Sequence record: MW341595
DNA length: 64,000 nt
Source: Shigella phage Sfk20
Strand: one strand, 5' to 3'
Translations under genes and position numbers: made by a program
The notes under the pieces: generated by a model
The model's database searches: none
What the model was told of the DNA's origin: nothing
What the model saw: only the letters and a program-made list of their open reading frames with translations
Shown here: one piece after another, positions 11,075 through 40,723 of the stretch
Position numbering within the stretch: the first letter of the stretch is position 1
Layout of the letters: every line of letters starts with the position of its first letter

Positions 11075-11545
11075 TTAATCATGTTTCCACACCCCATCGG
11101 TATTTGACCAAAGTCGCTGATTATCTGATCCTCGCCACAGCTTTTTAGTCGGAAGATTTTTCTCATACTTCCCATCAATAATAACATCAACATATTTAAG
11201 CATTTCTAGTTGTTTAATATCTTCAAATTTATATCCTGTCCACAACCAAATGCTTTTATTGGGATAAAGATTTTTTACTGTTTGAACCACAGAGTGAACA
11301 ACATCTCGGTTATCAGGATAGAGAGGGTCTCCTCCAGTTATAGTTAATCCTTCTATATAATCGTTATTCAAACATTCAATTAATTGTTCCAGTGTTTCAC
11401 CAGTGAATGGAACGCCATTTCTAGCATTCCATGTTGATTTATTATAACACCCTTCGCATTTATGCAAACAGCCTGTGACGAAAAGAACGACCCTGCATCC
11501 AGGGCCATTCACAAAATCGCATGGATAAAATCTATCATAATTCAT
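11075..11545 (-). CDS. nrdG: anaerobic ribonucleotide reductase activating protein NrdG (radical SAM)
   Basis: 156 aa; CLHKCEGC (Cx3Cx2C) radical-SAM cluster motif. Confidence 0.9.
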   Translation of the reverse strand: MNYDRFYPCDFVNGPGCRVVLFVTGCLHKCEGCYNKSTWNARNGVPFTGETLEQLIECLNNDYIEGLTITGGDPLYPDNRDVVHSVVQTVKNLYPNKSIWLWTGYKFEDIKQLEMLKYVDVIIDGKYEKNLPTKKLWRGSDNQRLWSNTDGVWKHD

Positions 11546-13359
11546 TGGTGTTTAACCCTATGCATGATTTCTTTATTTTTGCCGAGATTAAATCCGCGTT
11601 CGTTCGGATTTCCTAAATAACCGCAAGTTCTTCTTATTGTGTTCATCTTTTTAGGATCAGTTTCTCCACAAATAGAACAAACAAACCCGTTTTCAGTAGG
11701 AGTCATTTCATGTGTACTTCCGCATGTAAAACACTTATCTACTGGCATATTAACGCCAAAATAATCTAAATGCTGTGCAGCATAATCCCATACAGCCTCA
11801 AGACCTTTTAGGTTATTTTTCATATCAGGAAGTTCAACATAAGAAATGTGACCACCTGTCGCAATGAAATGATATGGAGCTTCGCGGGAAATCTTTTCAA
11901 ATGGAGTAATATTTTCTTCTACTGAAACATGGAAACTATTAGTGTACCAGCCTTTATCAGTAACATCCTTTACACTTCCATATTTTTCAGTATCAAGTTT
12001 ACAGAAGCGATAGCACAGGTTTTCAGCAGGTGTAGAATACAAACTAAAAGCAAAACCGGTTCTTTCAGTCCACTGCTTAAGACGAGCATTCATTTTAGTT
12101 AAAATTTCCTGTCCAATATCACGACCGACAAGAATATTCAATTCGTGAATACCAATGTATCCCAAAGACACTGAACTTCTACCGTTTTTAAATAACTCAA
12201 TTATGTCGTCATCAGGTTTAAGACGAACCCCGAATGCACCTTCTTGGTAAAGAATAGGAGCAACAGTCGCTTTAACTCCTTTTAAAGAATTAATTCTACA
12301 CATCAAAGCTTCAAAGCATAAATCCATTCGCTCATTGAACAATTCGGCAAATTTTTGTTCATTGAACTGTGTTCCAATATAAGAATCTAACGCAATGCGA
12401 GGAAGATTCAGTGTTACAACACCAAGATTATTACGTCCATCAAGAATTTCATTACCAGTCGAATCTTTCCATACGCTTAAGAAACTACGGCAACCCATTG
12501 GAGAAACAGGAATAGATGAACCAGTGATAGCTTTATTGTTCTTAGCTGAAATAATATCAGGATACATTCTTTTGCTTGCACACTCTAGAGCAAGCTGCTT
12601 AATATCATAGTTCGGATCATCTTTATAAAGATTAACACCTTCTTCAACGAACATAACAAGCTTAGGGAAAATAGGAGTTATCCCATCGCGACCAAGACCT
12701 TTAATACGATTTTTCAGAATTGCTTTCTGAATCATTCGTTCAGTCCAGTCAGTTCCCGTACCAAATGTAATTGTTACAAAAGGCGTTTGTCCGTTTGAAC
12801 TAAAAAGAGTATTTACTTCATATTCATAAGCTTGGAATGCATCGTATACGTCTTTTTCTGTTTTAGATTGAGCATAATTCAACGCATCAGCGATTTGCCA
12901 TTTTTCTGCGTCCTCAATATGTTTTGCATAGGTGCGTTTAACATAAGGAGAAAGTACTTTATCTACATTCGCAAAAGTCGTTCCACCATATTGGTGAGAA
13001 GCAACCTGTGCAGTAATTTGTGCCATAATTGCAGTAGCAACGCCGATTGATTTAGGAGTTTCAATCTGTGCATTACCGAGCTTAAATCCGTTTTCAAGCA
13101 TTCCTTTTAAATCTACTAAACAGCAATTAGTAAATGGAAGAGCAGGGGAATAATCAATATCATGGAAATGGATAATTCCGCTTTCATGCGCTTTCATAAT
13201 AAAAGACGGGACCATATTTTTGGCAATGTGTTTAGACACAATACCAGCCATAAGGTCCCGTTGAGTTGGAAAAACACGAGAATCTTTATTAGCATTCTCG
13301 TTCAAAAGGTCTTTATTAGTTTTATGAATCAATCCTTCAATTTCTTTTTCAATTGTCAT
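11542..13359 (-). CDS. nrdD: anaerobic ribonucleoside-triphosphate reductase NrdD (class III, glycyl radical)
   Basis: 605 aa uninterrupted ORF; C-terminal CxxC...CxxC zinc site and glycyl-radical motif RRTCGYLG. Confidence 0.93.
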   Translation of the reverse strand: MTIEKEIEGLIHKTNKDLLNENANKDSRVFPTQRDLMAGIVSKHIAKNMVPSFIMKAHESGIIHFHDIDYSPALPFTNCCLVDLKGMLENGFKLGNAQIETPKSIGVATAIMAQITAQVASHQYGGTTFANVDKVLSPYVKRTYAKHIEDAEKWQIADALNYAQSKTEKDVYDAFQAYEYEVNTLFSSNGQTPFVTITFGTGTDWTERMIQKAILKNRIKGLGRDGITPIFPKLVMFVEEGVNLYKDDPNYDIKQLALECASKRMYPDIISAKNNKAITGSSIPVSPMGCRSFLSVWKDSTGNEILDGRNNLGVVTLNLPRIALDSYIGTQFNEQKFAELFNERMDLCFEALMCRINSLKGVKATVAPILYQEGAFGVRLKPDDDIIELFKNGRSSVSLGYIGIHELNILVGRDIGQEILTKMNARLKQWTERTGFAFSLYSTPAENLCYRFCKLDTEKYGSVKDVTDKGWYTNSFHVSVEENITPFEKISREAPYHFIATGGHISYVELPDMKNNLKGLEAVWDYAAQHLDYFGVNMPVDKCFTCGSTHEMTPTENGFVCSICGETDPKKMNTIRRTCGYLGNPNERGFNLGKNKEIMHRVKHQ

Positions 13360-30509: not shown

Positions 30510-30788
30510 TTATTCTTTAAATCTAATCAATTTATTCATAGACTTTGAAACTTCTGCACGGACCTCATGTAGGTTTTTAAGCTGTTCAAGACGTTGCTCA
30601 TAATAAGCAATTTCATCTTCTTCAAGACAGTCCTGTGAATCTTCTTTAAGATAACGCGCATAGTCCTGGAAAGCTTTACGGACTACTTCCTGGAAGTCAT
30701 CAAGACTTTGAATTTTCTTAGGAGCAACAGATACACGACGAGGGGCAGTATAATACTCATAACCAAACCCTGCGCTTAATTGAGCCAT
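30510..30788 (-). CDS. hypothetical protein
   Basis: Start ATG 30786-30788 overlapping upstream stop (TAATG). Confidence 0.45.
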
Positions 30789-31090
30789 TAATATTTTTCC
30801 TCTGGTTGGAACACAGCACGACAAGCCCACATACTGGCTTCTTTGAGTTTCGTTTTAGCAATAGTTAACTGATCGAGGCTTTCAGCATAATTCTTCGCGA
30901 ATTCACAGTCTTCACAATTATCCAGTGCTTCCCAGAATTCATCGTATAAAGCGTCAAAGATAAGTCCTAAACGAACTTCAGCATCTTTGATAGCATTCAC
31001 TTTACCGATTTTCTCTTCAGTATGTGGCTTATAACCTTTAATATCTTCAATCATATTTGACTTCCTCACCAGTACATAAATCATATTCAA
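30788..31090 (-). CDS. hypothetical protein (T4 vs.4 position)
   Basis: 100 aa acidic ORF. Confidence 0.45.
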
Positions 31091-31268
31091 CTAAACGAAT
31101 AGGTTCATGAATGCCATATCCTTGAACAGAAATTTCTGTCGTAGGATAAATTCCATCAATATCACCCATGGTCCACGCTTCATTAAATTGCTGTTCGCCT
31201 GAATTACTAAACCACTCGGCGAAAGCATTTAACACATCTTTAGAACCTTCAATAATTATCTTTGCCAT
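31047..31268 (-). CDS. hypothetical protein
   Basis: 73 aa ORF. Confidence 0.4.
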   Translation of the reverse strand: MAKIIIEGSKDVLNAFAEWFSNSGEQQFNEAWTMGDIDGIYPTTEISVQGYGIHEPIRLVEYDLCTGEEVKYD

Positions 31269-31630
31269 TACAAGCTCTCAGTAAAGGTACGAGCGATAAC
31301 GTCGCGCTGCTGTTCCGGAGTCAGAGAGTTAAAGCGAACTGCATAACCGGATACACGGATGGTCAGCTGCGGATATTTTTCCGGATGCTTAACTGCATCT
31401 TCCAGAGTTTCACGACGCAGAACGTTAACGTTCAGGTGCTGACCACCTTCAATTTTAACTGTAGGCTGTGGTTCAATTTCAATTTCACGGGTGTGCAAAC
31501 CGTAGAAAATTTCTGGGTCTACAAAAGAGTCCTCTTTAAAGGTTTTAGAAACAATAATTCGTGCTTGAATACCATCTTCAAAATAAATAGTACCTTTATG
31601 TGTGCCTTCAAGAATTTGATATGCTTTCAT
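31268..31630 (-). CDS. autonomous glycyl radical cofactor (GrcA/YfiD-like)
   Basis: 120 aa; C-terminus [33 protein letters not shown] matches pyruvate formate-lyase glycyl-radical domain. Confidence 0.8.
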
Positions 31631-31636
31631 ATAACC

Positions 31637-32017
31637 TCAATTAGAAAATAAATTTATCCAAGACTGTTCTTTAATTAAAAATGGCTCAGAATCATATGCC
31701 ATTAAACTTTGGGTGATTAGTCCTTTAAAAGGTCCATCAATAAATTCCATGGTAAAATATGGAATTTTATTCATTAATCTTGCATTAGGAGCAGTACACA
31801 AAACTCTGCATCCTTTGAATACACCTTTTTGTAATTTGTATTGCTTAGGATAAAATTCGCTCAAGACGTTGTTATTTGCCAAAATTTCAAAATGATTCAC
31901 CAATTTATTTTTAATAGTTTTTGGCGAAAAATAAAGATATTCGAAAAGCTGTGTGTCTGTCATCATTGCATTCCGATTACGAAAAACTGCGGACGAGTAA
32001 TACCACCAGTGCAACAT
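31637..32017 (-). CDS. hypothetical protein
   Basis: 126 aa ORF. Confidence 0.45.
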   Translation of the reverse strand: MLHWWYYSSAVFRNRNAMMTDTQLFEYLYFSPKTIKNKLVNHFEILANNNVLSEFYPKQYKLQKGVFKGCRVLCTAPNARLMNKIPYFTMEFIDGPFKGLITQSLMAYDSEPFLIKEQSWINLFSN

Positions 32018-32550
32018 TTACTATTGCAACAGTATTGTACAGTTTCAATATGAATATCGTAAATTTTATCCATATCGGGAGATTTAACCGGCTCATCGAT
32101 TATATACAAAATCCGCGAAAGCGATAAACCTCTGAACTTGCTGCCTCTATTACCAACAAAACTACGGACAGAATCAGTAAATAAGCGGAATCGAATATCG
32201 TCACTAGAATAACGAGAAAATTCTTTTTTAATGTGGCCTGCAGAAATTTTAGCGTAAGCTGAAGTATTAGAAAGAACAATAACTGTTCCACCATCATACA
32301 GCCAATTAGCAGCAAAGTTAGTCACAGCAGTTGATTTACCGGATTGACGTCCACCATCTAGTCGAAGTGTGCAATACTGTTTGAGTAAGTCTTCAAATGG
32401 TAGGATATAATCGTTTTTACAAATTTCTTCTACTCTAGCATCAGAATGGTATGTAAAAGCATTCATCAGGGATAGATAAGGACCAGTTAAAAATGTTCTC
32501 ATTTTATTCTCTCTAAATTTGGGCCATTCCATGGCGCATGAATTGTCCAT
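31963..32550 (-). CDS. hypothetical P-loop NTPase
   Basis: Walker A GGRQSGKST and Walker B-like ILYIIDEP; start ambiguous among three Met. Confidence 0.5.
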   Translation of the reverse strand: MDNSCAMEWPKFRENKMRTFLTGPYLSLMNAFTYHSDARVEEICKNDYILPFEDLLKQYCTLRLDGGRQSGKSTAVTNFAANWLYDGGTVIVLSNTSAYAKISAGHIKKEFSRYSSDDIRFRLFTDSVRSFVGNRGSKFRGLSLSRILYIIDEPVKSPDMDKIYDIHIETVQYCCNSKCCTGGITRPQFFVIGMQ

Positions 32551-39895: not shown

Positions 39896-39971
39896 TGGTC
39901 GAGGCAGTAGGGATCGAACCTACGACCTAGGACTTAGAAGGTCCTTGCTCTTCCTTCTGAGCTATGCCTCG
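39896..39971 (-). tRNA. tRNA-Arg (anticodon UCU)
   Basis: 76 nt cloverleaf; acceptor CGAGGCA/UGCCUCG, anticodon stem AGGAC/GUCCU, loop CUUCUAA, T-arm GUAGG-UUCGAUC-CCUAC, CCA encoded. Confidence 0.9.
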
Positions 39972-39975
39972 GATT

Positions 39976-40050
39976 TGGCGGACGTGATAGGATTCGAACC
40001 TATAACCAATCGCTTAACAGGCGATCGCTCTGCCATTGAGCTACACATCC
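39976..40050 (-). tRNA. tRNA-Asn (anticodon GUU)
   Basis: 75 nt; acceptor GGAUGUG/CACGUCC, D-arm GCUC-AAUGGCA-GAGC, anticodon stem AUCGC/GCGAU, loop CUGUUAA, T-arm AUAGG-UUCGAAU-CCUAU, CCA encoded. Confidence 0.88.
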
Positions 40051-40054
40051 AAAT

Positions 40055-40141
40055 TGGTGGGGAGTGATGGAGTCGAACCACCCGAGTCGCAATGACAATG
40101 GATTTACAGTCCACACCGCTACCTCTACGGGATAACTCCCC
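40055..40141 (-). tRNA. tRNA-Tyr (anticodon GUA), long variable arm
   Basis: 87 nt; acceptor GGGGAGU/ACUCCCC, anticodon stem-loop GUGGA-CUGUAAA-UCCAU, ~15 nt variable arm, T-arm GGUGG-UUCGACU-CCAUC, CCA encoded. Confidence 0.85.
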
Positions 40142-40150
40142 AAATTAATT

Positions 40151-40225
40151 TGGTGGCCCTGGGTGGAATTGAACCACCATCTGGCGATTATGAGTCGCTT
40201 GCTTGAACCTTCCAGCTACAGGGCC
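40151..40225 (-). tRNA. tRNA with anticodon CAU (Ile2/Met type; T4 tRNA-Ile equivalent)
   Basis: 75 nt; acceptor GGCCCUG/CAGGGCC, anticodon loop CUCAUAA, T-arm GGUGG-UUCAAUU-CCACC, CCA encoded. Confidence 0.85.
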
Positions 40226-40226
40226 T

Positions 40227-40302
40227 TGGTGCTGATTGACGGAATCGAACCGCCGACCTTCTCATTACAAGTGAGTTGCTCTACCTACTGAGCTAAATCA
40301 GC
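40227..40302 (-). tRNA. tRNA-Thr (anticodon UGU)
   Basis: 76 nt; acceptor GCUGAUU/AAUCAGC, D-arm GCUC-AGUAGGUA-GAGC, anticodon loop CUUGUAA, CCA encoded. Confidence 0.88.
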
Positions 40303-40307
40303 AAAAC

Positions 40308-40397
40308 TGGCGGAGGCGATAGGATTTGAACCTATGAGTCGCCGGAGCGACTGCCGGTTTTCAAGACCGGTGCATTAAACCACTCTGCCACGCCTCC
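40308..40397 (-). tRNA. tRNA-Ser (anticodon UGA), long variable arm
   Basis: 90 nt; acceptor GGAGGCG/CGCCUCC, anticodon stem-loop CCGGU-CUUGAAA-ACCGG, long variable arm, T-arm AUAGG-UUCAAAU-CCUAU, CCA encoded. Confidence 0.88.
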
Positions 40398-40399
40398 AG

Positions 40400-40473
40400 T
40401 CTCCATACAAGGATTTGAACCTTGGACCTCCTGATCCCAAATCAGGCGCTCTACCAAACTGAGCTACACGGAG
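40400..40473 (-). tRNA. tRNA-Pro (anticodon UGG)
   Basis: 74 nt; acceptor CUCCGUG/UAUGGAG (two G-U pairs), anticodon stem-loop CCUGA-UUUGGGA-UCAGG, T-arm CAAGG-UUCAAAU-CCUUG, CCA not encoded. Confidence 0.85.
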
Positions 40474-40483
40474 TAAATTAAAT

Positions 40484-40557
<74 letters not shown>

Positions 40558-40562
40558 AAATT

Positions 40563-40649
40563 TGGTGCGAGAAGTGGGACTCGAACCCACAAGGAAATCA
40601 TTCCGCAGCATTTTAAGTGCTGTGCCTTTACCAATTTGACCATTCTCGC
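40563..40649 (-). tRNA. tRNA-Leu (anticodon UAA), long variable arm
   Basis: 87 nt; acceptor GCGAGAA/UUCUCGC, anticodon stem-loop CAGCA-CUUAAAA-UGCUG, T-arm GUGGG-UUCGAGU-CCCAC, CCA encoded. Confidence 0.88.
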
Positions 40650-40650
40650 G

Positions 40651-40723
40651 CTGGGAATAAAGGACTCGAACCTTTGCATCCTGGAATCAAAATCCAGTGC
40701 CTTACCAACTTGGCTAATTCCCA
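40651..40723 (-). tRNA. tRNA-Gln (anticodon UUG)
   Basis: 73 nt; acceptor UGGGAAU/AUUCCCA, anticodon stem-loop CUGGA-UUUUGAU-UCCAG, T-arm AAAGG-UUCGAGU-CCUUU, CCA not encoded. Confidence 0.85.

Follow-up and report, generated by a model that had tools for sequence, protein, structure and literature searches.

The 120-residue protein encoded at positions 31268..31630 of the Shigella phage Sfk20 sequence (record MW341595; coordinates refer to the whole 64,000-nucleotide stretch that was analysed, hereafter the window) is the orthologue of bacteriophage T4 Vs.6. We consider it highly probable (roughly 0.88) that this protein is a spare part for host pyruvate formate-lyase (PFL) and that its gene is a mosaic, in which the DNA for the glycyl-radical domain was overwritten from the host grcA gene by gene conversion. 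The gene belongs to established T4 biology, as do its family and biochemical activity, and re-identification of a characterised T4 gene by itself adds little. The chimeric origin, in which a host-copied radical domain sits on a phage-specific N-terminal half and which arose separately from E. coli and K. pneumoniae DNA, is robust. No description of a host-identical tract in vs.6 was found in the searchable literature, and older T4 papers could mention one.

Position of vs.6 and its translation signals

The features of the gene, all read from the minus strand, are as follows.

31268..31630, minus strand: vs.6 (Y06I) orthologue, phage GrcA; an ATG-to-TAA open reading frame of 120 amino acids
31268..31452, minus strand: the tract of vs.6 assigned to the host, comprising codons 60/61-120 and the stop codon, which encodes the structured glycyl-radical domain
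31453..31630, minus strand: the phage-specific 5′ half of vs.6, residues 1-59/60, AT-rich
31346..31348, minus strand: GGT codon for Gly95, the predicted radical site, placed by alignment register and sequence reading
31635..31638, minus strand: GAGG Shine-Dalgarno sequence of vs.6, placed by sequence reading
31047..31268, minus strand: vs.5 orthologue, from the open reading frame list, alignment and PHROG 1986

The window is a segment of a Tequatrovirus genome, with 99.6% DNA identity to Escherichia phage ECp13 over 2.1 kb, and its gene order is that of T4 (vs.8, vs.7, vs.6, vs.5, vs.4, vs.3, regB), the neighbours being identified through RegB, Acb2/vs.4 and PHROG matches for vs.5, vs.7 and vs.8. 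The GAGG sequence lies 4 nt before the ATG of vs.6 and overlaps the TGA stop codon of vs.7, while the ATG of vs.5 overlaps the stop codon of vs.6 (TAATG), so that vs.6 and vs.5 are probably translationally coupled. Since there are overlaps at both of its ends, vs.6 is a member of a tightly packed minus-strand operon. A scan for sigma-70 promoters and terminators around vs.6 gave counts no higher than those for shuffled sequence.

Some details of the flanking genes were also apparent. The program-made open reading frame for vs.7 (31637..32017, minus strand) has 126 amino acids against 109 for T4 vs.7, and PHROG 2049 aligns to it from residue 18 only; the true start is probably an internal methionine near 31966-31969. 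The vs.8 orthologue (31963..32550, minus strand; PHROG 1488) carries a Walker-A-like GGRQSGKST motif and is weakly matched by phrog_2, a terminase large-subunit family (6e-6); these features point to an uncharacterised P-loop NTPase. The vs.4 orthologue (30788..31090, minus strand), which lies two genes downstream of vs.6 and is listed with a TTG start and 100 amino acids, matches the Pfam Acb2/Tad1 hairpin domain (PF24729, 1.1e-19), a family of phage sponges against cyclic-nucleotide immune signals.

The product is a Vs.6 protein of the GrcA/YfiD family

The Sfk20 protein is identical to T4 Vs.6 (Y06I, NP_049730) at 118/120 residues (98%), and the RefSeq name of the T4 orthologue is 'autonomous glycyl radical cofactor GrcA'. 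The two phages share the 120-residue length, the neighbouring genes and an E. coli-like 3′ tract whose boundary is identical. They differ at residue 47 (threonine in Sfk20, alanine in T4) and at residue 73 (arginine in Sfk20, histidine in T4), where the Sfk20 copy agrees with E. coli GrcA whereas the T4 copy does not, and their vs.6 DNA shows a few synonymous changes besides these substitutions. The protein matches PHROG 1209, the T4 vs.6 group, over its full length (residues 1-120, E=1.4e-62) and its gene stands between vs.7 and vs.5, upstream of regB, as expected of that group.

The first-pass annotation had described an open reading frame of 120 amino acids ending in the PFL glycyl-radical domain, and this description is supported by the frame itself, by Pfam, which finds Gly_radical PF01228 alone (E=2.6e-18, residues 61-101), and by structure matches to E. 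coli GrcA (6OWR, E=8.4e-42) and PflB (1H16, E=4.9e-26). The protein has the architecture of the GrcA/YfiD family (TIGR04365 / IPR011140), namely that of a small stand-alone protein of the ~14 kDa class whose sole domain is a C-terminal glycyl-radical domain. Among NCBIfam models the GrcA equivalog TIGR04365 scores best (153.4 bits, residues 20-120), but divergence of the N-terminal half keeps the score below the trusted cut-off of 170. HMM alignments to GrcA reach N-terminally to residue 20-22 of the Sfk20 protein, and in one pairwise comparison the N-terminal half shared 13/40 residues (~33%, E=1e-5) with residues 28-67 of GrcA; the two N-terminal halves are thus probably homologous, though far diverged.

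Conservation of the C-terminal half is far higher. Residues 61-120 are 100% identical to residues 68-127 of E. coli GrcA (YfiD, 6OWR), and counted over the C-terminal 61 residues (60-120) identity is 60/61 to GrcA and about 80% to PflB; every residue of the structured radical domain is kept. An alignment to E. coli GrcA, which had been put forward earlier as a check on the spare-part assignment, retains the radical glycine: Gly95 aligns with GrcA G102, and with PflB G734, inside an identical RVSGYAV motif. Compared with GrcA, the Sfk20 protein is 7 residues shorter and the DNA for its N-terminal half is AT-rich, and vs.6 lies in a phage early-region operon whereas host grcA lies between ung and eamB.

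Residues 58-120 align ungapped to PflB 697-759 (1H16), the piece, including G734, that the spare part replaces. A complete glycyl radical enzyme of the PFL/TdcE type was considered and rejected, as matches cover the last 63-65 residues of PFL only (TIGR01255 680-744 of 744). The vs.6 product has neither the ~750-aa ten-stranded barrel nor the catalytic Cys418/Cys419 and, unlike PflB, is no enzyme by itself; the label 'pyruvate formate-lyase' in many phage records is therefore a misnomer.

Homologues, all of them intact, were found by tblastn in 1588 phage records from T4-like, T5-like, Aeromonas and Vibrio phages. vs.6 is among the few open reading frames kept in all T4-like genomes compared in an earlier study (PMC1524935), and its 5′ half is conserved among T4-like genera. 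The GrcA-like genes of Slopekvirus, Pseudotevenvirus, T5-like Demerecviridae, Aeromonas and Vibrio phages have the same two-part design, with a C-terminal domain that includes RTFT, and as in Sfk20 the C-terminal domain is conserved while the N-terminal half is variable. In Morganella phage vB_Mm5 (PP397179; L087 37-690) the homologue is annotated with 217 amino acids, including an N-terminal extension of ~95 residues, which is either a fusion with the upstream gene or a wrongly called start.

The radical domain is encoded by E. coli-like DNA

When vs.6 was compared with complete E. coli genomes by blastn, grcA was matched in 5426/5426 of them at 97.8-98.9% identity. The match covers nt 179-363 of the gene only (the last 185 nt, 31268..31452), and the first 178 nt gave no detectable DNA match in any of the 5426 genomes. 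A three-way alignment shows that identity runs from the EGGQH codons to the stop codon, with none upstream or downstream, and the maximum chi-square breakpoint falls at 31452/31453, its two sides having 47.8% and 98.9% identity. Over a 183-nt block, 181/183 nucleotides and 58/60 codons are identical to E. coli grcA. Composition changes at the same place. Between the tract and the 5′ half, GC content falls from 0.50 to 0.33 and GC3 from 0.47 to 0.20, the mean GC3 of 12 other open reading frames of the window being 0.26 +/- 0.04.

Constraint on the protein was evaluated as a cause of the DNA identity and discarded. The Slopekvirus protein block is also 100% identical to GrcA, yet 30/60 of its codons are identical to those of E. 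coli, against 58/60 in Sfk20 (Fisher p=3e-9). The same 60 residues are encoded in Slopekvirus and Pseudotevenvirus with 30-33/60 identical codons, so protein constraint cannot explain the identity at the DNA level.

Out of 183 positions, the Sfk20 block is identical to E. coli at 181, to Citrobacter at 169 and to K. pneumoniae at 161, and the tract of a sister Tequatrovirus is identical to Salmonella grcA at 151/183. For E. coli grcA itself, divergence from its relatives is about the same in the two halves. Because the tract has host composition and is closest to E. coli, and because the two halves of E. coli grcA are evenly diverged, sequence comparison gives the direction of transfer as host to phage. 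One host record deserves comment: in NZ_JBQPOM010000029.1 ('Vagococcus sp. WN89Y', Gram-positive) the grcA product is 91% identical to that of E. coli and the DNA is close to enterobacterial copies, and this assembly is likely to be contaminated or its organism misidentified.

A short island of host composition could in principle be an artefact in which host reads were merged into the phage contig during assembly, and phage preparations do contain host DNA. However, the T4 reference and 627 other phage records, T2 included, contain this tract in frame and with an identical 5′ boundary; it carries phage-specific substitutions, and phage sequence flanks it on both sides within a single open reading frame, including the overlapping start of vs.5. 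We regard an artefact as having a negligible chance of being the explanation.

The vs.6 tract is the sole match to E. coli chromosomes when the whole 64 kb is searched by megablast, with no other host-like DNA on those chromosomes. Separately, part of the cluster of 10 tRNA genes at 39896..40723 (minus strand), at ~39990-40146, is 83-90% identical to Tyr/Thr/Asn/Arg tRNA arrays on ~75-110-kb plasmids in 255 E. coli genomes; this segment matches plasmids only and no chromosome. Those plasmids may be phage-plasmids with a tRNA cassette in common with T-even phages.

A second host-like tract occurs in Klebsiella phages

A block 95-99% identical to E. coli grcA is present in 628 phage records, T4 and T2 included. 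The best phage block reaches 98.9%, none exceeds 99%, and the distribution of identities has a gap between 95% and 89%.

Jiaodavirus, which infects Klebsiella, is the exception among the other phages. Its block has a GC content of 0.56 and is 96% identical to K. pneumoniae grcA against 86.7% to E. coli grcA; over the first 150 nt it agrees with K. pneumoniae at 147/150 positions and with E. coli at 131/150. Residues L77 and E81, which are specific to Klebsiella, are encoded in it, and the final ~30 nt are AT-rich and of 'old phage' type. Judged by these comparisons, the Jiaodavirus tract was derived from a host independently of the E. coli-like tract, with which it shares its 5′ boundary, and the structured radical domain would have been overwritten from host genes at least twice. 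The K. pneumoniae grcA used here was taken from PLSDB 'plasmid' entries that include chromosomal sequence. Several PLSDB entries, CP125156.1 and LR134122.1 among them, are chromosomes or large chromosomal pieces labelled as plasmids, for example a 5.37-Mb K. pneumoniae 'plasmid unnamed2'.

Unlike Sfk20, the T5-like, Aeromonas, Vibrio, Krischvirus, Slopekvirus and Pseudotevenvirus copies have no host-like tract, their best C-terminal block identities being 70-85% at the DNA level among 81 sampled host grcA genes, a set drawn from hosts other than Vibrio and Aeromonas.

Neither tract extends beyond the coding region, and the most conserved stretches form the borders of each; for this reason we infer homologous conversion of a pre-existing phage homologue and not illegitimate insertion. 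The N-terminal half would on this account be an old, AT-rich phage grcA homologue, into which E. coli chromosomal grcA was copied across the radical-domain DNA by homologous recombination (gene conversion). The part that has to fit host PflB and PflA would thereby have become a near-exact copy of the host's own.

Single acquisition or continuing exchange

The tract may have been acquired once in each lineage or refreshed from time to time. In the latter case the radical domain would be periodically overwritten with the grcA of the principal host (E. coli for Tequatrovirus and Mosigvirus, K. pneumoniae for Jiaodavirus), while the N-terminal 'adaptor' half stays the phage's own. We give this possibility a little less than an even chance. 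The evidence for continuing exchange is suggestive. Four E. coli alleles were sampled, and each of the three sites at which they vary (block positions 12, 39 and 102) varies among phages as well, with the same bases. In addition, the Sfk20 tract differs from E. coli at 2 sites and that of Mosigvirus at 8, despite their common ancestor, and between Tequatrovirus and Mosigvirus the 3′ half is less diverged than the 5′ half.

The alternative is a single old acquisition for each tract, one in the ancestor of Tequatrovirus and Mosigvirus and one in Jiaodavirus, followed by vertical inheritance, which we consider possible but somewhat doubtful. It accords with the absence of any phage record at 99.5% identity to E. 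coli grcA, the 628 E. coli-like blocks all being within 95-99%, and with the modest difference in synonymous divergence between the two halves of Sfk20 and Mosigvirus (40/52 identical codons against 54/61). Tequatroviruses isolated on Salmonella and Yersinia also keep an E. coli-type tract: that of the Salmonella-infecting phage SG1 is identical to E. coli grcA at 177/183 positions, and to Salmonella grcA at 151/183, so the tract is not refreshed at every host change. The shared variable sites and the unequal distances from E. coli (2 against 8) speak against this alternative, although the counts are small.

If repeated conversion is correct, a strictly lytic phage and its host would be undergoing concerted evolution over a tract of ~150-185 bp. 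For T4, which otherwise shares no DNA of the window with the E. coli chromosome, this would also be a rare instance of homologous DNA exchange with the host.

Proposed role in PFL repair

PMC8683613 attributes to Knappe and coworkers (Wagner et al. 2001, pmid 11444864) the observation that E. coli YfiD and T4 Y06I restore PFL that has been cleaved by O2. According to that source, restoration proceeds in a set order, PFL activase first installing the radical and the activated protein then forming a complex with cleaved PFL. PMC12338860, which cites Wagner et al. too, gives the same account and has the radical pass from GrcA G102 to PflB C419. Together with the 118/120 identity and the synteny with T4 vs.6, this reported Y06I biochemistry bears out the first-pass reading of the protein as a GrcA/YfiD-like spare part.

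By analogy with the YfiD/Y06I literature, O2 would cleave host PflB at its radical glycine, G734, and the spare part would bind the damaged enzyme, its C-terminal domain (about residues 54-120) replacing the lost beta-strand, glycyl loop and helix. Host activase PflA would install a radical on Gly95, from where it would move to PflB Cys419, restoring the conversion of pyruvate and CoA to acetyl-CoA and formate. The YfiD N-terminal half governs the binding of cleaved PFL and the efficiency of activation (PMC8683613). This half of YfiD, the equivalent of the phage N-terminal half, is disordered and aids binding and activation.

Vs.6 might instead be a modulator which competes with host GrcA or diverts PflA, cleaved PflB or TdcE and so reprogrammes fermentation. 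An N-terminal half only ~33% identical to that of GrcA, in a region with the regulatory influence just described for YfiD, would suit such a role. Against it, Y06I is reported to reconstitute PFL activity like YfiD (PMC8683613), and the catalytic half is identical to the working part of the host protein, as expected of a functional replacement. A modulator is improbable in our estimation.

For the phage, repair of PFL would be expected to bring a sustained supply of acetyl-CoA and fermentative ATP in a microaerobic infected cell. A search of the literature found no in-vivo phenotype of vs.6 during infection. As a repair factor, vs.6 illustrates well how a phage auxiliary metabolic gene can mend a host enzyme.

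Relation to the anaerobic ribonucleotide reductase

It had also been noted that NrdD and NrdG are encoded in the same window, and both genes were confirmed, about 18 kb from vs.6. The link to the phage's anaerobic dNTP supply that the first-pass annotation drew from them is a reasonable one.

11542..13359, minus strand: NrdD, anaerobic class III ribonucleotide reductase, 605 aa (Pfam NRDD 1.3e-171, and Gly_radical)
11075..11545, minus strand: NrdG, radical-SAM activase of NrdD, 156 aa, with a CxxxCxxC motif (PHROG 626, 6.7e-72, a group labelled 'anaerobic ribonucleotide reductase small subunit')

A group I intron interrupts nrdD in the T4 reference genome. The Sfk20 gene is a single unbroken 605-aa open reading frame and appears to be without the T4 intron at that locus.

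Formate is the reductant of class III ribonucleotide reductases, T4 NrdD included (PMC4493059). As PFL makes formate, its repair would feed anaerobic dNTP synthesis; repair could thus keep up formate for phage NrdD and tie vs.6 to nrdD and nrdG. This probable coupling through formate matters for phages in the low-oxygen gut.

A more direct connection would be that Vs.6 is a spare glycyl-radical domain for phage NrdD, activated by NrdG, and not for host PFL. Nolan et al. 2006 (PMC1524935) speculated on a role in nucleotide metabolism from the common Pfam Gly_radical domain, both NrdD and NrdG are encoded in the window, and in Aeromonas phage 65.2 (KY290955; L093 124-486) the homologue adjoins nrdG directly. 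Membership of the NrdD class of glycyl-radical domains was rejected, however: BLASTP of Vs.6 against the NrdD of the window found no significant similarity (E=2.6), which makes a direct spare-part role for NrdD unlikely. The motif is of the PFL type (RVSGYAV), the C-terminal half is GrcA/PflB-like, and the biochemistry reported in PMC8683613 used PFL and PFL-AE. We therefore consider NrdD a very improbable client. The Aeromonas phage 65.2 gene lies between nrdG and a thioredoxin gene, a placement unlike that in T4.

Wider implications

T-even phages share almost no sequence with host DNA. If the tract holds up and proves to be unpublished, its importance would be that these phages, though they degrade host DNA, can gain short host coding stretches by homologous recombination, and it would offer a natural clock and a marker for phage-host association. 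There is also a practical consequence. A 2026 paper proposes grcA as a core-gene qPCR marker for E. coli Straboviridae (PMC12845203), and primers placed in the 3′ half of vs.6 would also amplify host DNA, because every E. coli genome carries a chromosomal grcA with 95-99% identity to that half.
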